A stretch of 64,000 nt of DNA from a virus (Duplodnaviria; Caudoviricetes). The notes under the pieces are model-generated. The model worked only from the letters and a program-made list of their open reading frames with translations. It had not been told where the DNA came from and made no database searches. The position numbers and the translations under genes were made by a program. Position 1 is the stretch's first letter. Each line of letters opens with the position of its first letter. The stretch lies in the IMG/VR virus record IMGVR_UViG_3300032243_000867, positions 201,896 to 265,895 of that record; one strand, written 5' to 3'. Shown here in pieces: positions 1,797-64,000 of this stretch.

Positions 1797-2900
1797 ATGT
1801 CGCTCGACGTGCAATTGGCTTTTTTGTGCCCCCACCTGATCGGTGAGGAACGGGTTGCTCTGGGTAGCGACCGCCGCACGTTGTACACGTCAAAGCCCAT
1901 CAACGGACCGTCCCTTCTACGAGTGCAGGCCAACGACGGGACGGACATCTCCCCTTACACGGGGCTTGTGACGCTCGCTTCGGTGAAGTCGTACCGCCGC
2001 GAGCCGTACAAGATCACCCTTGCGACCCGAACGCTCGTCGTCGTCTCCCAGACGGGTACGGCCACCGTGACGTTTCCCCAGGGGTACCTATCGGCGGCGC
2101 GGGTAACGGACGCCCTCAACGCCGGGGCGGGGAGCCTCATCGTGGCGGCAGCTTCCACAACGGGCTACGTCACGATCACGGACAAGGGCAATCCCGGACC
2201 CGCTTCGCGCGTGCAACTCTCGGGAAGCGCGCTGGAACCTCTCGGGTTCGACCTTCAATCGGGCGCGAAGGGGCGCACGGTTGTCCCGCCGTGGAGGCTG
2301 TACTCTCGGAACGTCGTGAACCCGCAGGATGCCGTGGATTCCCTCGGGTACTACGTCGGGTTCGATGCCCCCGTATCGCAGAACCCCTACTTCACGGTGA
2401 CGTACACCGTGGCCCCGAACCTGTGCCTTCGGTGCCTGACCACGGAGGTCGAGAACGATTACCGCTTCGACGCGCAGGGCGCGGCGCTGGTGGTGAAGGA
2501 CGAGAACCTCCTGTACCAATCCGTCCTGAAGTACCTTCTCACCGACATCAAATCGAATATGTACCACCCGTGGTACGGAAGCACTCTGAAGTCCCTTATC
2601 GGCACGAAGGTTCTGAGCGGCGCGGCGGCGGGTATCCGTCAGTCGGTGAGCACGGCGCTGTCTACCTTCAAGGCGTTGCAGGACGCCCAAGCGAAGTACC
2701 AACGGATCACGGCCAAGGAGAGACTTTTCTCCGTGGACAACATCGCCGTGGCTCAGTCCCCCGTTGATCCGACGGTGTTCTACGTTCAGGTCAGCGTGCG
2801 AAACTACGCGAACGAACCCGTGGACATCACCATCGCGTACGCGGCACCGGGGACGTTCGCGCTACCGGGCACCAACCAGATCTCACTAGGGAACTATTGA
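1797..2900 (+). CDS. Baseplate wedge protein with C-terminal gp25/sheath-initiator-like domain
   Basis: C-terminal ENLLYQSVLKYLLTDIKSNMYHPWYGSTLKSLIG...FYVQVSVRN resembles the gp25/GPW family; directly upstream of baseplate J. Confidence 0.7.
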   Translation: MSLDVQLAFLCPHLIGEERVALGSDRRTLYTSKPINGPSLLRVQANDGTDISPYTGLVTLASVKSYRREPYKITLATRTLVVVSQTGTATVTFPQGYLSAARVTDALNAGAGSLIVAAASTTGYVTITDKGNPGPASRVQLSGSALEPLGFDLQSGAKGRTVVPPWRLYSRNVVNPQDAVDSLGYYVGFDAPVSQNPYFTVTYTVAPNLCLRCLTTEVENDYRFDAQGAALVVKDENLLYQSVLKYLLTDIKSNMYHPWYGSTLKSLIGTKVLSGAAAGIRQSVSTALSTFKALQDAQAKYQRITAKERLFSVDNIAVAQSPVDPTVFYVQVSVRNYANEPVDITIAYAAPGTFALPGTNQISLGNY

Positions 2901-13036: not shown

Positions 13037-13192
13037 ATGGCAGCGAAGGTTCAAGTGCTCGTCGGATTCGATGCAGACCAGATTGAATGGCTCAAGTCTG
13101 AGAGCCTTCGACGCCGCGTGCCCAGAGCTCAAGTTGTTCGCGAGCTAGTCCTCCGAGAAATGACTCCGCAACCGAAAACGCCCGTCGAATGA
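13037..13192 (+). CDS. Ribbon-helix-helix (CopG-like) protein
   Basis: Manual translation MAAKVQVLVGFDADQIEWLKSESLRRRVPRAQVVRELVLREMTPQPKTPVE; ATGA overlap with tnpB. Confidence 0.6.
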   Translation: MAAKVQVLVGFDADQIEWLKSESLRRRVPRAQVVRELVLREMTPQPKTPVE

Positions 13193-14427
13193 TCTTGCGG
13201 GCCTACAGGGTAGAGCTCGACCCAAACGACCGGCAACGGACGGCCTTTATCCGTCATGCCGGGTCCGTGAGGTTCGTCTACAACTGGGGCCTCGCTACTT
13301 TGATGCAGGACTACGCGGAGCGGAAAGCTGCCACCCCCGAAGGCGAAAAGGTGAAGGGTGGGTTGCGACCTCTCGATCTACAAGCCCGCCTTCCGGCGTT
13401 GAAGATCGAGCACCCGTGGCTCGCGGAAGTTACCGCACAGTCTCTCCAGATGTCTGTTCGCAACCTCGACCGTGCGTTCCGAGGCTTCTTTCGACGGGTG
13501 AAAGCGGGTCTCACTCCCGGATACCCCCGCTTCAAGAAGCGCGGGTTGACCAAGCCCGCGTTCCAATTTGCTCAGAAGGTCAAGGCTACGGGGACTCGCG
13601 TTTGTCTCCCGAAGATCGGACCCGTGCGGTTGAAGCAGCGGGGCTACATCCCCGCAGACCTCCCCCTCAAAACCGTCACCGTCAGGGAGGTTGTGGGGAG
13701 GTGGTTCGTAACGGTTCTGGTTGAGGTTCCAGACCCACCGAAGGTCGAAACGACCGGGGGGATCATTGGGATCGACCTCGGCGTCAAGACCCTCGCCACC
13801 CTATCGGACGGAACGGTCTACCCCAACCCGAAACACCTTGAACGGTCTCAAGATTCCCTAACGCGCCTTCAACGGAAGCTCTCCCGTCAGCAGAAAGGAT
13901 CGAACAGACGGGCCAAGACCAAGGTCCGCATTGCGAAGGCCCACGCACGGATCAGTAACCAACGGGTGGGTAGCCTCCACAAGATGACCAGCGAAGTCGT
14001 GAAAACCAAGCGACCTACGACTATCGTCATCGAGGACTTGAACGTCGCGGGAATGACCCGGAATCGTCGTCTAGCGAGGGCGGTGAGTTCCGCATCGTTC
14101 GCGGAGATTCGTCGTCAACTAACATACAAGTGTGACTGGCACGGGGTGAAACTCGTGGTAGCAGACCGCTTCTATCCGTCCAGCAAGACTTGCAACGGCT
14201 GCGGGGCGGTGAAGAGCGACATCACCTTGGGGGAGCGTACCTACGTCTGCGACCTTTGCGGGTATGTTCGAGACCGAGACGTGAACGCGGCTCTCAACCT
14301 ACGGGGTTGGGGAATGAATTTTCTGGCCGGGGGAACCCCGGCGACTGCTCGCGGAGGAAACGTAAGACCCGAAGCAATTCGGGCAGATTCCGTTGAAACG
14401 AGAACCGATCAGGGGACGGCCCCGTAA
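13189..14427 (+). CDS. tnpB: TnpB RNA-guided endonuclease
   Basis: N-terminal LRAYRVELDPNDRQ HTH; RuvC motifs IGIDLG, IVIEDL and DRDVNAALNL; zinc finger CNGC...CDLC. Confidence 0.93.
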   Translation: MILRAYRVELDPNDRQRTAFIRHAGSVRFVYNWGLATLMQDYAERKAATPEGEKVKGGLRPLDLQARLPALKIEHPWLAEVTAQSLQMSVRNLDRAFRGFFRRVKAGLTPGYPRFKKRGLTKPAFQFAQKVKATGTRVCLPKIGPVRLKQRGYIPADLPLKTVTVREVVGRWFVTVLVEVPDPPKVETTGGIIGIDLGVKTLATLSDGTVYPNPKHLERSQDSLTRLQRKLSRQQKGSNRRAKTKVRIAKAHARISNQRVGSLHKMTSEVVKTKRPTTIVIEDLNVAGMTRNRRLARAVSSASFAEIRRQLTYKCDWHGVKLVVADRFYPSSKTCNGCGAVKSDITLGERTYVCDLCGYVRDRDVNAALNLRGWGMNFLAGGTPATARGGNVRPEAIRADSVETRTDQGTAP

Positions 14428-14469: not shown

Positions 14470-15120
14470 ATGCGCTACGCCGACCGGGTCAACCGACCCC
14501 GCGAGGGACTCAAGATGGGCTTCGATTTCGGGCACGCCGATGGTGTGGTGTCCCTCAAGGGGACGTACATCATTCACCTCACGGACATCGCCACGGGTGA
14601 AGTTCTCGATCACCGAGAGAAGTCAAACATCGTCACGCTGGACGGCGGGATTCTGGTCGCGTTGCTTCTCGCCTCGGGTCCGACCCCGGTGCCTCCTTCG
14701 CAGCGCGGGCTCACCATGCTCGCCGTGGGCACGGGGGCGACGGGGCCGTTGCTGAACCCCGACGCGCCCGACCCCCGGCAACGGAAGCTCAACAGCGAGC
14801 TCTGGCGCAAGGTTTTCAGCGTTCGCCAGTTCCGCAACTCGACAGGCGGTGCCGTGAGCTATCCCACCAACGTGGTGGACTTCACGGCGACCTTCGGCGC
14901 GGGCGAGGCCGAAGGTCCCCTCAACGAGATGGGCCTGCTACGCACCCTCACCCTCGGGCCGACCCCCGGTACGCCGATTACCCCGGCCCCGGTGTTCCCG
15001 GCATATGACCCGACCGTGGATCTCACGAACTACGACATCCTCGCGAACTACACAACCTTCGGGGTATGCGTGAAACCCGCGAACAGCCTCCTCACCATCA
15101 CTTGGCGGCTTACGACGTGA
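14470..15120 (+). CDS. Tail collar/baseplate protein (DUF3751-like)
   Basis: SNIVTLDG...LAVGTG...LNSELWRK...VDFTATFGAGEAEGPLNEMGL pattern; start may be 14515. Confidence 0.65.
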   Translation: MRYADRVNRPREGLKMGFDFGHADGVVSLKGTYIIHLTDIATGEVLDHREKSNIVTLDGGILVALLLASGPTPVPPSQRGLTMLAVGTGATGPLLNPDAPDPRQRKLNSELWRKVFSVRQFRNSTGGAVSYPTNVVDFTATFGAGEAEGPLNEMGLLRTLTLGPTPGTPITPAPVFPAYDPTVDLTNYDILANYTTFGVCVKPANSLLTITWRLTT

Positions 15121-16451
15121 ACGAGAAGCTCTACGTCCTCGATACTTCCGTTCTCATCCACGACCCCGAAGCTCTGAGGTCGTTCCGCGGCACATCGGTC
15201 GCCATTCCGATCTTCGTGGTGATGGAGCTCGACGACCTCAAGGTGAGCACCCGTCACGAGGTGTCGAGTGCAGCCCGCACGGCTTCGCGGCGCATCGCCC
15301 GCATCGTTTCGCAGGGCGACGTGAACAACCCGAACGGGATCAACGATCTCAAGACCGGGAGCACGTTCTACGTCGTCGGTCAGGACGAGCACTTCGAGAG
15401 CCTCCAGAACACCACCTTGTCCCGCAAGATGGACCTGCTCATCCTCGGCAGCGCCCTGAAGCTACAGGAACGCTTTGCCAACAAAACGGTGGTGCTGGTT
15501 TCCAAGGACGTGAACCTTCGCATTCTCGCCGCCGCCAAGGGCGTCGGGGCGGAGGATTATCGCAAGGACCGGGTGGACCCGAACGAGGTTCCCTCGGGCG
15601 TTCATACCCAGGTGCTCACGGACCCCGATGCCCTTCAGCCCCTCTACGGGGCGGACCCGCCCGATACGGTGCCGTGCGTAGACCTAGACGCGGTGTCCCC
15701 CAACGAGTTCATTCGGTTCACCGGGCAAGGGTTCAGCCCCCAGTTGTTCCGATGGAACGGGACCGCCTTGCGCCCCGCTTCGCGCGGGAAGGGCATGAAG
15801 TTCGAGGCCCGCAACGACGGCCAGCGTATGGCGCTGGACCTATTGATGGACCCGAAGGTCCACCTCGTCGTGCTGAACGGCGCGGCGGGCTCGGGCAAAA
15901 CGCTGCTCAGCCTGATGGCGGGGCTGTACCAGTTGGAACGCCAATACGACAAGATCATCCTGTCGAAGCCCGTGGTGTCGATGGGCCGTGACCTCGGGTA
16001 TCTACCCGGCACCGAGAGCGACAAGATGCACCCGTGGATGTTGTCGTTCTACGACAACCTCGACCAGCTTCTCACCACCGATGCGAAGGAAAACAAGCGC
16101 AAGGGGGTCAAGGAGAAGAACTGGGAGCAACTGATGCAATCGGGGCAGGTGGAAATCCAGCCCATGCACAGCATCCGTGGGCGGTCTATCCCGCGCTCGT
16201 TCATGCTGTTCGACGAGATTCAGAACGCCACCCCCCACGAGGTGAAAACCGTGGTGAGCCGTGCGGCCACGGGGACGAAGGTAGTCCTGTGCGGTGACCC
16301 GTCGCAGATCGACGACCCGTTTCTGGATGCCTTCAGCAACGGGTTGGTACACGCCGCGAAGATGACTCGGGAATCACCCTTGGCCGGGTCGGTCTATCTC
16401 GGTGAGGGCGTCCGCAGCCCACTGGCAGAGCTCGCGGCCAAGTCCCTCTGA
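15117..16451 (+). CDS. phoH: PIN-domain PhoH family ATPase (PhoH2/YlaK-like)
   Basis: YVLDTSVLIHDP and LVSKDVNLRI (PIN); GAAGSGKT, GRDLGYLPG, IRGRSI, DEIQN and GDPSQID (PhoH); GTGA overlap. Confidence 0.92.
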   Translation: MNEKLYVLDTSVLIHDPEALRSFRGTSVAIPIFVVMELDDLKVSTRHEVSSAARTASRRIARIVSQGDVNNPNGINDLKTGSTFYVVGQDEHFESLQNTTLSRKMDLLILGSALKLQERFANKTVVLVSKDVNLRILAAAKGVGAEDYRKDRVDPNEVPSGVHTQVLTDPDALQPLYGADPPDTVPCVDLDAVSPNEFIRFTGQGFSPQLFRWNGTALRPASRGKGMKFEARNDGQRMALDLLMDPKVHLVVLNGAAGSGKTLLSLMAGLYQLERQYDKIILSKPVVSMGRDLGYLPGTESDKMHPWMLSFYDNLDQLLTTDAKENKRKGVKEKNWEQLMQSGQVEIQPMHSIRGRSIPRSFMLFDEIQNATPHEVKTVVSRAATGTKVVLCGDPSQIDDPFLDAFSNGLVHAAKMTRESPLAGSVYLGEGVRSPLAELAAKSL

Positions 16452-59183: not shown

Positions 59184-59447
59184 TTATAGCAGCGGCAGGT
59201 GAAGCCCTACCCACGACCCTAGGGACCCGCCCACCATCAGCCCGATCCATTGGGAGCGCCGCCCGTCTTCGACAAGGCGTTTGATGATTGAGACGTTCAG
59301 CGCCGTACTCAGTACGTCCGTGATCAGCGCGAAGCGGAAGTGTCCTACTGCGGTGGAGCGGACATTCAAGTACCACAGCAGGTGGTAGACGAATTGGGCG
59401 ACCGCGACCGCTAGCGGGGAGGACATAGCCTTGTCCGTGGGGTTCAC
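59184..59447 (-). CDS. Small membrane protein sharing its start with cassette C11
   Basis: VNPTDKAMSS... with hydrophobic helices; GTGA overlap with C11. Confidence 0.6.
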   Translation of the reverse strand: MNPTDKAMSSPLAVAVAQFVYHLLWYLNVRSTAVGHFRFALITDVLSTALNVSIIKRLVEDGRRSQWIGLMVGGSLGSWVGLHLPLL

Positions 59448-59617
59448 GTTCGGGGTTCCCTACCCCGAAGGACGCACCGAAACCCGAGGTTGTTGTCCTG
59501 GTACGCAGGCTCGTCCGCGTTGCGAATGGCCGCGCGCACCCTCGACGGTCCATAGTTGTGCCAACAGCCGCCGCCGCGGAAGACGCGGTCGGAGGTGGTG
59601 GTGTCCGTGGGGTTCAC
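59444..59617 (-). CDS. DGR-type VR mini-protein C11
   Basis: VNPTDTTTSDRVFRGGGCWHNYGPSRVRAAIRNADEPAYQDNNLGFRCVLRGREPRT. Confidence 0.82.
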   Translation of the reverse strand: MNPTDTTTSDRVFRGGGCWHNYGPSRVRAAIRNADEPAYQDNNLGFRCVLRGREPRT

Positions 59618-59784
59618 GTTCGGGGTTCCCTTCCCCGCAGCGCGCACCGAAACCCGATGTTGTTGATACGGTCCGCAGGCACGTACGTGAAGCGAGACGC
59701 GGCGCGCACCCACGACGGTACGTAGTTGCCCCAACTGCCGCCGCGGTAGACGCGGGTGTCGGAGGGCTTGGTAGGAGGGTTCAT
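59614..59784 (-). CDS. DGR-type VR mini-protein C10
   Basis: MNPPTKPSDTRVYRGGSWGNYVPSWVRAASRFTYVPADRINNIGFRCALRGREPRT. Confidence 0.85.
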   Translation of the reverse strand: MNPPTKPSDTRVYRGGSWGNYVPSWVRAASRFTYVPADRINNIGFRCALRGREPRT

Positions 59785-59933
59785 ACTCGGGGTTGCCTTA
59801 CTGACAGGTGGGTTCGGAACCCGACGTATTTGTCTCGGGTCTCGGAAGAAATATCCGAGACCTCGTCCGCCGCGCGCACGTAGAGGGGGCGCTCGATGAC
59901 CCAACTTCCTCCGCGTACCATGCGGCGTTTCAT
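59781..59933 (-). CDS. DGR-type VR mini-protein C9 (GFRTHL subfamily; not in the ORF track)
   Basis: Manual translation MKRRMVRGGSWVIERPLYVRAADEVSDISSETRDKYVGFRTHLSVRQPRV. Confidence 0.78.
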   Translation of the reverse strand: MKRRMVRGGSWVIERPLYVRAADEVSDISSETRDKYVGFRTHLSVRQPRV

Positions 59934-60076
59934 CGCGGGCACCGGCACCGGGCTCGGAGGCGGAAGCCCACGGTGGTGTTGCGGTAGACAGGTTCCTTTC
60001 GCACGCGCGCGGGGACGGCGCGGGGGTCGTTGCCGAAGCTGTAGCTCCGCAGGGTGAGAGTCCCCGGTGGGTTCAT
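59930..60076 (-). CDS. Diverged VR mini-protein C8
   Basis: MNPPGTLTLRSYSFGNDPRAVPARVRKEPVYRNTTVGFRLRARCRCPR. Confidence 0.65.
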   Translation of the reverse strand: MNPPGTLTLRSYSFGNDPRAVPARVRKEPVYRNTTVGFRLRARCRCPR

Positions 60077-60225
60077 CGCGGTGCCCTCATCGTCAGGTGC
60101 GTACGGAATCCCAGTAGGCGTCCATATCGCTCCGGTCCGTAGATGTGGGCCACGGTGCTGGTCCCCAGCCATTTCGGGTCATCGCTACGAAGGCATCCCC
60201 CACGGGTGACGTTCTGGTTGTTCAC
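60073..60225 (-). CDS. VR mini-protein C7 (GFRTHL subfamily)
   Basis: VNNQNVTRGGCLRSDDPKWLGTSTVAHIYGPERYGRLLGFRTHLTMRAPR. Confidence 0.72.
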   Translation of the reverse strand: MNNQNVTRGGCLRSDDPKWLGTSTVAHIYGPERYGRLLGFRTHLTMRAPR

Positions 60226-60455
60226 GGGTCGCTCCGATTGGTGTCGGTCCAGTGTTCGAGGTCGGTGGTGTCGAGGATGTCCGTGCAAACGTCAGCGGGC
60301 GGGGTCACCTCTCGGTGTTCCCCGCCCGCCGTGATCGTGTCCGCCCACGCGAAGGACGCTCCCGCGTCCGGGTCGTAGCCGTGCCCTACCCGGACGGTGA
60401 CCACTTCGGGGTTCGCCCGGAGGTAGTCCCGTGCCCAGTCACTCGCCCGCGTCAT
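60222..60455 (-). CDS. Hypothetical protein (77 aa)
   Basis: MTRASDWARDYLRANPEVV...; coupled to C7 by GTGA. Confidence 0.6.
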   Translation of the reverse strand: MTRASDWARDYLRANPEVVTVRVGHGYDPDAGASFAWADTITAGGEHREVTPPADVCTDILDTTDLEHWTDTNRSDP

Positions 60456-60723
60456 GGGAAGGGTTACGCTGCTTGAGGTAGGCGCGGAGGATGTTCGCGG
60501 CGCTATTCGCCGCGTCATCGCAGTAGCCCACGAACTCCTGCGCGTCTTCGCCGTTCTCCACCACGCCGTCGAGGGCGGCGAGGGCCTGACCCGCAATTTT
60601 GCGGGCGGCGAGGGCGTGGAACCCCGTGCTCGCCGGGTCACTTCGGTGAAGCGAATCGAGGAGGACCGAGCACTGGAGGCTGAAGCTGACGGTGTTGACC
60701 GCGTACTGGATCTCGTTGTTCAT
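60439..60723 (-). CDS. Hypothetical helical protein
   Basis: 94-aa ORF with GAAGGG RBS. Confidence 0.65.
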   Translation of the reverse strand: MNNEIQYAVNTVSFSLQCSVLLDSLHRSDPASTGFHALAARKIAGQALAALDGVVENGEDAQEFVGYCDDAANSAANILRAYLKQRNPSHDAGE

Positions 60724-60984: not shown

Positions 60985-61167
60985 CTAGTGTGTGCGGGGT
61001 TGCCTCGCCCGAAGGGCGCACCGAAACCCCAGGTTGTCGTCACGGCACGCAGGCACGTCCGCGCCGCGAGACGCGGCGCGCACCCTCGACGGTACGTTGC
61101 TGTACCAACAGCCTTCGCGTTGGACGCGAAGGCGGGTGTCGGAGGTGGGTTTGGTGGTGGGCTTCAC
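60985..61167 (-). CDS. DGR-type VR mini-protein C6
   Basis: VKPTTKPTSDTRLRVQREGCWYSNVPSRVRAASRGADVPACRDDNLGFRCALRARQPRTH. Confidence 0.85.
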   Translation of the reverse strand: MKPTTKPTSDTRLRVQREGCWYSNVPSRVRAASRGADVPACRDDNLGFRCALRARQPRTH

Positions 61168-61343
61168 GTTCGGGGTTCCCTTCCCCGCAGCGCGCACCGA
61201 AACCCGATGTTGTTGCACCGGTTCGCAGGCACGTACGTGAAGCGAGACGCGGCGCGCACCCACGACGGTCCGTTGAAGTACCCACCGCCGCCGCGGTAGA
61301 CGCGGGGGCGGGTGTCGGAGGTGGGTTTGGTGGTGGGCTTCAC
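61164..61343 (-). CDS. DGR-type VR mini-protein C5
   Basis: VKPTTKPTSDTRPRVYRGGGGYFNGPSWVRAASRFTYVPANRCNNIGFRCALRGREPRT. Confidence 0.85.
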   Translation of the reverse strand: MKPTTKPTSDTRPRVYRGGGGYFNGPSWVRAASRFTYVPANRCNNIGFRCALRGREPRT

Positions 61344-61516
61344 GTTCGGGGTTCCCTTCCCCGCAGCGCGCACCGAAACCCCAGGTCGCCGTACCGGTTC
61401 GCAGGCCCGTTCGTGTTGCGAGACGCCGCGCGCACCCACGACGGAGCATTGTTGTGCCAACTGCCGCCGCGGTCGACGCGGAGGCGGGTGTCGGAGGGCT
61501 TGGTAGGGGGCTTCAC
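61340..61516 (-). CDS. DGR-type VR mini-protein C4
   Basis: VKPPTKPSDTRLRVDRGGSWHNNAPSWVRAASRNTNGPANRYGDLGFRCALRGREPRT. Confidence 0.85.
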   Translation of the reverse strand: MKPPTKPSDTRLRVDRGGSWHNNAPSWVRAASRNTNGPANRYGDLGFRCALRGREPRT

Positions 61517-61686
61517 GTTCGGGGTTCCCTTCCCCGCAGCGCGCACCGAAACCCCAGGTCGCCGTACCGGTTCGCAGGCCCGTTCGTGTTGCGAGACGCC
61601 GCGCGCACCCACGACGGTGCATAGTTCCAACAGCCGCCGCGGCCGACGCGGAGACGGGTGTCGGAGGGCTTGGTAGGGGGGTTCAT
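61513..61686 (-). CDS. DGR-type VR mini-protein C3
   Basis: MNPPTKPSDTRLRVGRGGCWNYAPSWVRAASRNTNGPANRYGDLGFRCALRGREPRT. Confidence 0.85.
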   Translation of the reverse strand: MNPPTKPSDTRLRVGRGGCWNYAPSWVRAASRNTNGPANRYGDLGFRCALRGREPRT

Positions 61687-61865
61687 ACTCGGGGTTCCCT
61701 TCCCCGCAGCGCGCACCGAAACCCCAGGTGGAGGAGCCGGAGCGCAGGCACGCCCGAGTTGCGAGACGCCGCGCGCACCCACGACGGTGCATAGTTCCAA
61801 CAGCCGCCGCGGACGACGCGGAGACGGGTGTCGGTCTTGGGTTGCTTGGTGGTGGGGGGGTTCAT
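61683..61865 (-). CDS. DGR-type VR mini-protein C2
   Basis: MNPPTTKQPKTDTRLRVVRGGCWNYAPSWVRAASRNSGVPALRLLHLGFRCALRGREPRV. Confidence 0.85.
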   Translation of the reverse strand: MNPPTTKQPKTDTRLRVVRGGCWNYAPSWVRAASRNSGVPALRLLHLGFRCALRGREPRV

Positions 61866-62038
61866 ACTCGGGGTTCCCTTACTGACAGGTGGGTGCGAAA
61901 ACTCATGTCGGTTTCGCGCCACTCGGGCTCGTACGAGCCCCGGTCGGCGGGCCGCATGAACGGGGCGTAGGAGAGTCCCCAACCTCCTCCCACCAGTACG
62001 CGGGGGAGGTTGGGGTCCGGGGGCTGTGCCCGTCTCAT
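61862..62038 (-). CDS. VR mini-protein C1 (FRTHL subfamily), coupled to the FGE scaffold
   Basis: MRRAQPPDPNLPRVLVGGGWGLSYAPFMRPADRGSYEPEWRETDMSFRTHLSVREPRV; its ATG overlaps the scaffold TGA. Confidence 0.78.
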   Translation of the reverse strand: MRRAQPPDPNLPRVLVGGGWGLSYAPFMRPADRGSYEPEWRETDMSFRTHLSVREPRV

Positions 62039-62868
62039 TTGTGGACGGTGCTGGTCCACTCCCAGACGTTGCCGCTCATGTCGAGCAGCCCGTAGGGGGA
62101 GGCACCCTTCGGGCGGGCGGGGGTGCCGTCCGGGTTGACGCACGGGGCCGTGCGTTCCTTCTGGGTGCGGATGGACGACCAGCACAGGTCGTCCGTCGGG
62201 GCCTCGTTGCCCCACGGAAACTTCCGACCGTCCCAACCGCGTGCGGCGTGCTCCCATTCCTCCTCGGTGGGGAGGCCGACACCGGCCCACTTCGCGAACT
62301 CACAGGCGTCCCAGTAGGAGACTTCCACCACCGGGTGGTCGATGAGGTCCACCGTCGCGCCCGACTGGTCCGTGGCGGTCGTGGGCTTCAGGTCTTTCCC
62401 GCACGCCGTGGCGTACCAGTTCCACTGGCGCACGGTGGTGGGGGTCTGCGCCATGAACCCACCGGGGACTCTCACCTTCCGGCGCGTTTGAGACTCGTCG
62501 TCCCCCATCTCGAACGCCGTGGCCGGGGGGACGTAGCACATGGGCAGGGTGTTGCCGTCGGGGAGGACGTGATGCACCACCCACGGGGTTCCGCCCAGCT
62601 CCGCGAGCGTGGGCCAGATCTCGCGGACCTCGCCGTCGTCGTCCTCCAGGCGGGGGACGCACCCGTAGGTGCGGTGGACGCGAAACGTCCAGACCTCCTT
62701 GGAGGTGAGCACCCGCACGCCCGTGATTCCCGCCGGGAGGTTCCCGGCGATTTGGCGGATCACCGACATCACCTCGTCGAGGTGATCGCCGGAGGGCAAT
62801 CGGAAGTCGGGCTCGATGTCGAGCCATTGGCCGAGACATGATTCGATGAAGCACCCTTGGATTTCCAT
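62035..62868 (-). CDS. FGE-sulfatase/C-type-lectin-fold protein lacking its C-terminal variable region
   Basis: FEMG, QTPTTVRQW, HPVVEVSYWDACEFAKWAG, LPTEEEWEHAARG, FPWGN, SPYGLLDMSGNVWEW, then a stop after TSTVHK; GGAGA RBS before ATG 62868. Confidence 0.9.
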   Translation of the reverse strand: MEIQGCFIESCLGQWLDIEPDFRLPSGDHLDEVMSVIRQIAGNLPAGITGVRVLTSKEVWTFRVHRTYGCVPRLEDDDGEVREIWPTLAELGGTPWVVHHVLPDGNTLPMCYVPPATAFEMGDDESQTRRKVRVPGGFMAQTPTTVRQWNWYATACGKDLKPTTATDQSGATVDLIDHPVVEVSYWDACEFAKWAGVGLPTEEEWEHAARGWDGRKFPWGNEAPTDDLCWSSIRTQKERTAPCVNPDGTPARPKGASPYGLLDMSGNVWEWTSTVHK

Positions 62869-62890
62869 TCGTTCTCTCCGTGTGTGTGAG

Positions 62891-62898
62891 TTACGCCC
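62891..62898 (-). promoter_or_regulatory. GGGCGTAA motif upstream of the FGE scaffold operon
   Basis: 22 nt upstream of ATG 62868. Confidence 0.55.
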
Positions 62899-62900
62899 GG

Positions 62901-63056
62901 TCACGGGCGGGGGGCGGGGGTTTCGGCGGGTGGGGCGGGGGCGTTCTGCGCTTCGAGCGCAGCCGCGATGCGCTCCAGGGCGCGGGCGATACGGGGGAGG
63001 GTCCCCTCGTAGTAGACGCGACCCATCATCGTCTGCCAGAACCCGGGGCCGCTCAC
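62901..63056 (-). CDS. Small hypothetical protein
   Basis: VSGPGFWQTMMGRVYYEGTLPRIARALERIAAALE; GTGA overlap. Confidence 0.6.
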   Translation of the reverse strand: MSGPGFWQTMMGRVYYEGTLPRIARALERIAAALEAQNAPAPPAETPAPRP

Positions 63057-63817: not shown

Positions 63818-64000
63818 TCACTCGACGAGCGCAGCCTCGACTACCTCCCACGGCACCGCGCAACGCACGGCGGCGGCGTCGGCGGCGGAGTCGTCGGCGT
63901 AGTAGGCGGCGCGGGCGGCGGCGCGGGCGTAGACGGCGGCGGCGTCGGCGGCGTCGGCGGCGTCGTAGTAGGCGGCGCGGGCGGCGGCGTGGGAGGCGGC
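63818..64000 (-). CDS. Ala-rich low-complexity protein, 5'-partial
   Basis: Manual translation ...AASHAAARAAYYDAADAADAAAVYARAAARAAYYADDSAADAAAVRCAVPWEVVEAALVE-stop. Confidence 0.65.
   Translation of the reverse strand, partial: AASHAAARAAYYDAADAADAAAVYARAAARAAYYADDSAADAAAVRCAVPWEVVEAALVE

Follow-up and report, generated by a model that had tools for sequence, protein, structure and literature searches.

We found that C3, one of a row of small genes near the end of a large uncultured phage genome, is probably a true recombinant cassette. Its structure points to a tandem duplication that produced C3 and its neighbour C4, followed by a conversion patch from the upstream neighbour C2, with both events acting on stand-alone mini-genes that would have been written by a DGR. 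The window, by which we mean the whole stretch of DNA that was analysed, is the last 64 kb of the 265,895-bp virus record of this phage, which is estimated to be 59% complete.

The cassettes follow a scaffold gene (62035-62904, minus strand) that encodes a 289-aa protein with a truncated FGE/C-type-lectin fold. Its match to Pfam FGE-sulfatase covers profile positions 12-193 of 255 (E=9e-32), and its C terminus reads ...GNVWEWTSTVHK, without the RGGSW...GFR segment. No other FGE N-terminal part occurs in the 266-kb record. The missing profile positions, 204-254, are matched by C2 (61683-61865, minus strand, 60 aa) and C5 (61164-61343, minus strand, 59 aa). Array 1, directly after the scaffold, consists of six ORFs of 57-60 aa, C1-C6, at 60985-62038 on the minus strand, and three small genes separate it from array 2, which consists of five ORFs of 48-57 aa, C7-C11, at 59444-60225. 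About 26 cassettes of this kind are present in the whole record, in six places. Every cassette is a stop-free ORF of its own (48-60 aa), and the scaffold ORF ends before the variable segment. Within the arrays, each start codon is an ATG or GTG contained in a 4-nt RTGA (ATGA/GTGA) overlap on the preceding stop, and the ATG of C1 (61862-62038, minus strand; 58 aa, of the ...SFRTHL class) overlaps the stop of the scaffold itself (ATGA). The intact ORFs and the RTGA overlaps suggest that the mini-genes may be translated and that their products may dock on the scaffold. The frame moves by -1 at every RTGA junction, which brings C3 back into the scaffold frame; across 61513-62904 this frame has 522 open codons and one TGA, which is probably an effect of high GC content. 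Elsewhere in the window we noted a transposase-like gene (13189-14427; phrog_506, E=7e-114), a PhoH-like gene (15066-16451; phrog_2765) and a weak baseplate match at 1797-2900. A GC-rich CGG/12-nt/66-nt repeat occupies 63867-64000, up to the end of the record, and may mark an assembly break.

The earlier note on this DNA had called recombination a second layer of cassette diversity, and a template from outside the record confirmed the first layer, adenine-specific variation of the DGR type. We inferred the template by putting A at the variable positions of the cassette alignment and searched with the resulting 26-mer, which had exactly one match among bacterial and archaeal genomes. The match, L082 (CAISKJ010000074.1), comes from a MAG with the title "uncultured delta proteobacterium" and is a contig 2,470 bp in length. 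A reverse transcriptase (RT) occupies 71-1138 of this contig and is followed by a template repeat at about 1166-1281; the opposite strand encodes a full-length FGE target (1815-2456, minus strand) that has a variable region (VR) of its own. The inferred template thus corresponds to a real DGR template beside an RT. Among solved structures, the L082 target comes nearest to FGE (E about 6e-18), with a weak match to TvpA 2Y3C (E=2.6e-4), and it has GNVWEWTSTV exactly at the point where the phage scaffold ends. The contig may be either a clue to the host or a mis-binned phage fragment.

Comparing the cassettes with the L082 template over 116 nt (26 adenines and 90 other positions) revealed a strong adenine signature. 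C10 (59614-59784, minus strand, 56 aa), from the second array, differed from the template at 11 adenines and nowhere else, fitting the bacterial repeat at all non-adenine positions. The differences at adenines and elsewhere numbered 12 and 2 for C5, 17 and 4 for C2, 11 and 4 for C3, 10 and 4 for C4, and 16 and 2 for the MAG's own VR. Because the cassettes depart from a real template almost only at adenines, the raw variation that was shuffled is of DGR origin. The four non-adenine differences are the same in C2, C3 and C4, and the two in C5 are others, which suggests that at least two template alleles may have written this cassette repertoire. Complete agreement with a distant template at non-adenine positions has served as a criterion for diversification in trans (PMC10907252). 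We found a template matching the cassettes only in the 2.5-kb bacterial MAG contig; neither the 266-kb record nor any of three relatives, genomes that are 13-59% complete, yielded an RVT_1. DGR targets can carry a GC-rich hairpin just downstream of the VR, with a 7-10 bp stem and a 4-nt GRNA loop (PMC3240598). No such canonical hairpin was found downstream of the cassettes, where the best candidate has a 5-bp CGGGG/CCCCG stem and a 7-nt loop and the folding energy does not surpass that of shuffles (z about -0.3).

We next describe the fine structure of C3 (61513-61686, minus strand, 57 aa), whose mosaic nature is seen both in a decomposition based on the longest exact match that each position finds in the rest of the record and in the pattern of marker sites. 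The earlier note had reported that C3 is identical to C4 (61340-61516, minus strand, 58 aa) over 110 nt and to C2 over 55 nt, and both tracts are exactly as described. The first (61508-61617 vs 61335-61444) extends through the 3' variable half and the tail, across the GTGA junction and 5 nt into the next leader; the second (61588-61642 vs 61758-61812) lies in the variable region. Each is a maximal exact match with a mismatch on either side, and they overlap by 30 nt (61588-61617), which defines the breakpoint interval. The one-codon deletion said to be common to C2 and C3 is also there: these two cassettes have two of the three AAC-type codons, and the others and the bacterial template keep three. 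Read along the gene, C3 consists of a C1/C2-like junction with an ATG start context (61676-61701, by longest exact match), a C4-type leader (61655-61680, identical to 61485-61510), a C2-type 5' variable patch and the C4-identical 3' half, with overlaps of 30, 10 and 5 nt between successive source tracts. From 5' to 3', the sites that distinguish C2 from C4 read Q PPPP QQQQQQQ PxPPPP Qx14 in C3, with P for C2-like and Q for C4-like states. The C2-like part extends at most over 61588-61664 (61588-61642 equal 61758-61812, and 61644-61664 equal 61814-61834) and, by its markers, at least over 61618-61654. The description of this part as half of a VR has to be given up, since it is an internal patch of 37-77 nt and contains, at 61643, a base private to C3 (in a GGC codon).

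The breakpoint interval coincides with the one stretch of the VR that adenine-specific mutagenesis leaves alone. Its 30 nt correspond to the longest adenine-free stretch of the template (27 nt, CCGTCGTGGGTGCGCGCCGCGTCTCGC) plus an unmutated AAC. Because adenine mutagenesis cannot vary it, the 27-nt core is identical in nearly all cassettes, and it offers the best homology inside the VR as well as its longest interval free of markers. The coincidence of breakpoint and core is therefore expected and is no independent test of recombination.

Tests on the cassette alignments supported recombination as a further source of diversity, to different degrees for the different pairs. When the 14 class-A cassettes in the 266-kb record are compared in pairs, exact matches generally reach 42 nt at most and lie mainly in the conserved tail. 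The outliers above 42 nt are C3-C4 (105 nt inside the cassette), C6 and a remote cassette (72 nt), C2-C3 (55 nt), C5-C10 (52 nt), and C11 and another remote cassette (49 nt). We used two permutation tests, one that shuffles the order of all polymorphic sites and a stricter one that is confined to template-adenine sites and permutes states within columns, keeping site-specific preferences. The C3-C4 tract exceeded the background in both (p=0.0035, pair and global, for all polymorphic sites; global p<0.0004 for adenine sites), and the tandem duplication of C3 and C4 is strongly supported. C2-C3 stood out at the level of the pair only: p was 0.003 for the pair and 0.32 globally with all sites, and 0.0017 and 0.13 with adenine sites, a test that leaves out the shared codon deletion and a shared T in the leader. 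Four gametes were present in 30 of the 66 pairs of informative non-adenine sites, with Rm at least 4-6 in 116 nt. Because mutagenesis cannot create non-adenine markers that show four gametes, recombination among the cassettes, or among their templates, is general.

The C2 patch in C3 is probable and moderately supported. Its markers are two shared A-to-T changes, the codon deletion, a T/C difference in the leader and one retained A. It is possible to accept the C3/C4 duplication alone and to explain the likeness of the C3 5' half to C2 by coincidence or convergent selection (Cys TGT, Tyr TAT and loss of AAC). TGT and TAT/TAC do occur at those codons in 4-5 of 13 cassettes. The deletion, too, lies in an AAC run that appears prone to indels, because the cassette g71401 has an independent 3-nt gap near, but not at, the site of the C2/C3 deletion, and the C2-C3 resemblance is not significant once corrected over all pairs. 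Against coincidence, the pair p values are low even before the indel and the leader T are added, C2 is physically adjacent to C3 and is the record's best match for the stretch (55 + 21 nt with one mismatch), and the identity extends to synonymous positions (GCA, vs GCT in C4). We consider a chance or convergent likeness improbable and favour a patch from C2.

Exchange across arrays was also examined. The earlier note had seen a peptide, RAASRFTYVPA...NNIGFR, common to C5 and C10. This identity exists, but its value as evidence of recombination does not hold: the unmutated template itself encodes precisely RAASR, PA and NNIGFR, and the shared derived states, TTC, TAC and GTG, amount to four A-to-T changes, with GTG frequent among the cassettes. 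Although the VR of C5 is broadly like that of C10 and the pair gives p=0.0085 with all sites and 0.009 with adenine sites, the global p is 0.39-0.55, and we rejected C5/C10 as a case of cross-array recombination. Better examples are C6 and C11. C6 (60985-61167, minus strand, 60 aa) is a second clean mosaic, which joins a C5-type junction and leader (75 nt exact) to a VR with 72 nt identical to a cassette at genome 41743-42087 (adenine-site global p<0.0004). These two cassettes, about 220 kb apart, are alike in nearly all adenine-site states, and their differences fall in the last four variable codons, a polarity that 3'-anchored partial rewriting would be expected to produce. C11 (59444-59617, minus strand, 57 aa) shares 49 nt of its 3' variable half exactly with a cassette at genome 71383-71571 (adenine-site global p=0.015), and the 5' halves are different.

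The number of cassettes differs between this phage and its relatives. After C1, there is one class-A cassette in the relative L001, there are two in L002 and there are five in the present record. In both relatives, whose scaffold proteins are 73-74% identical to the present one, the first cassette after C1 has an ATG start and a C3/C4-type leader. C1 itself is identical to L002:6822-6998 at 171 of 177 nt, with scaffold proteins only 73% identical; this first tip is thus far more conserved than the scaffold gene that precedes it.

From the observed tracts, their statistics, the adenine signature and the difference in copy number, we infer the order and direction of events, as well as the recombination machinery and any functional effect. 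The ancestor would have had one cassette with the 'PPTKPSDT' leader directly after C1, as the relatives still have. Tandem duplication of a 173/176-nt unit, comprising leader, VR, tail and GTGA junction, would then have given C3 and C4. Such a duplication accounts for the C4-like leader of C3, for the identical 3' half and for the 110-nt identity that reaches 5 nt into the next cassette; the duplicated units are now 173 and 176 nt long and are five substitutions and one codon indel apart. A non-reciprocal conversion patch of 37-77 nt, probably from the upstream neighbour C2 into C3, would have replaced part of the 5' variable half, with its 3' boundary within the 27-30-nt adenine-free core, which offers homology. 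A single change at the adenine site 61643 would have come later.

Two simpler crossovers did not fit. A single unequal crossover of C2 and C4 in the 30-nt overlap predicts either C2-[C4 5' + C2 3']-C4 or a deletion hybrid that replaces its parents, and was rejected because the polarity of C3 is the opposite, its leader is of the C4 type and both parents are intact. Had the duplication arisen by crossover in the conserved tails of 36-41 nt, C3 would have an ATGA tail junction; C3 ends in GTGA, and the duplication boundaries lie just past the start codon, with microhomology only. The earlier proposal that recombination expands the array and shuffles VR halves is therefore retained in its main part, with C3 as a recombinant of its neighbours, an array grown by duplication and variable-region halves exchanged on top of DGR-type variation, but not as a single crossover.

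We also considered whether the three cassettes could have become different without any exchange, if C2, C3 and C4 came from one cassette whose differing halves were rewritten from the template by partial retrohoming. According to the Bordetella phage model, cDNA integrates with a fixed 3' end, at the IMH, and only its 5' end can vary (PMC3240598). Consistent with rewriting, all four substitutions between C3 and C4 within the VR are at template adenines, the 5' variable half of C4 is unique and has no donor in the record, and in two pairs, C2 with C3 and C6 with its remote cassette, a common 5' half stands beside a different 3' part, as 3' anchoring with a variable 5' end would have it. C3 and C4 have the opposite polarity, however, being the same at every adenine site of the 3' half and different in the 5' 37-77 nt, and C11 and its remote partner are likewise shared 3' and different 5'. 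Rewriting also leaves the leader of C2 different, with two indels, despite the 5' half it has in common with C3; it needs at least three events, compared with two in the favoured history; and the four-gamete rule is broken by non-adenine markers. We regard rewriting by retrohoming alone as an unlikely source of the C3 pattern and keep to duplication followed by conversion. The absence of any divergence between the 3' halves of C3 and C4 further means that neither copy has been rewritten since the duplication.

Finally, C3 could be a chimera or a mis-resolved repeat from short-read metagenome assembly, as the record is a metagenomic virus contig and the array has a period of 170-180 nt with a 110-nt exact repeat. 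Yet C3 cannot be spelled from the other cassettes: of the 21-mers in 61500-61700, 181 in all, 54 occur nowhere else in the record. These C3-specific 21-mers start at 61500-61507, 61623-61643, 61645-61654 and 61661-61675, and they cover the junction between the C3 tail and the C4 leader as well as the private base at 61643. With source tracts that overlap by 30, 10 and 5 nt, a de Bruijn mis-join would presumably call for k no greater than 31, or even no greater than 11, and should not arise in a graph built with the usual k values; both 'parents' are present and intact. Searches for further copies retrieved no independent assembly of the locus. A C3-specific 57-mer had no match in viral contigs and a C2-specific 37-mer had none in metagenome contigs; a conserved C1 36-mer matched only the relative's own contig, and a cassette-tail 32-mer only the L002 contig. 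In an exact protein look-up, C1 and C10 were found on two contigs each, and C2, C3 and three longer overlapping ORFs had no exact copy in the protein collection. The 94-aa protein between the arrays (60442-60723) has an exact copy on 12 contigs (JGI, ENA and Logan), which indicates that near-identical phages have been assembled elsewhere; this neighbour had no match in viral contigs and none in GenBank phages. An assembly artefact seems to us very improbable, and we treat C3 as a genuine cassette.

The arrays resemble several known systems in part. Gene conversion and tandem duplication in paralog arrays, such as Neisseria opa/pilS and the chicken Ig V pseudogenes, leave short identity tracts with divergent flanks, kinship that is incongruent from segment to segment, changes in copy number and breakpoints in conserved stretches between hypervariable ones. 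Likewise, the phage arrays have over-long identity tracts, incongruent segments (P-Q-P-Q in C3, and C6 and C11) and a copy number that varies among relatives. They differ in that the units are complete mini-ORFs of ~175 nt with their own RTG start, not silent cassettes feeding one site, and in that the variation was first written by adenine-specific retro-mutagenesis. In antigenic variation of the silent-cassette type (pilE/pilS and vlsE), donors have no starts and become expressed only once moved into a single expression site, but every phage cassette has an ATG or GTG start and an RTGA overlap. A possible further parallel is with polymorphic-toxin loci (CDI cdiA-CT and Rhs orphans), which consist of a long gene followed by a row of alternative C-terminal modules, with recombination patchworks. 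The phage array differs from these in having no toxin or immunity pair, in the starts that its cassettes have of their own and in lacking homology between the cassettes and the 3' end of the scaffold for swapping in.

With FGE-type CLec proteins and multi-VR DGRs (TvpA 2Y3C; PMC3521204, PMC10907252), the phage cassettes share variability in the C-terminal 50 FGE-sulfatase residues, a nearly adenine-only departure from a template and the presence of several targets through duplication. Unlike a DGR target with its VR at the C terminus inside the target ORF, the phage has its variable segment in ORFs apart from the scaffold, and the corresponding RT and template belong to a bacterial MAG and not to the phage record. 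A 2012 survey of DGRs reported up to four VRs (PMC3521204), compared with about 26 copies in the phage record. Published work describes how DGR targets are duplicated and how entire CLec domains recombine onto new N termini (PMC3521204, PMC10907252); exchange within the VR between stand-alone cassettes or paralogs is not described in either of these papers.

The process seen here is gene conversion of the ordinary kind, acting on a tandem array, and a mosaic copy in such an array would be routine by itself; what is unusual is the substrate, and the interest lies in DGR-type VRs that a large phage carries as mini-genes standing on their own. The C3 mosaic indicates that these tip units are duplicated and exchanged as modules, with the boundary of exchange in the adenine-free core, and the identity of the C3 and C4 3' halves sets a bound on current DGR activity in this lineage. 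Solved structures of DGR variable proteins show variable residues from the whole C-terminal region exposed to solvent, where together they make up a single binding site (PMC6328139). Because both VR halves form one binding surface in those proteins, the C3 hybrid should, by analogy, be a new tip. If the tips dock on the shared scaffold, recombination would multiply the repertoire created by retro-mutagenesis. We tentatively suggest, as a possibility that we rate below our account of C3 itself, a two-tier system serving one receptor-binding scaffold, in which tips would be written by a DGR, possibly that of the host acting in trans during infection, and would then be duplicated and re-assorted by short-tract conversion that hinges on the adenine-free core. 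If this is true, recombination would keep making new tips even without a reverse transcriptase.
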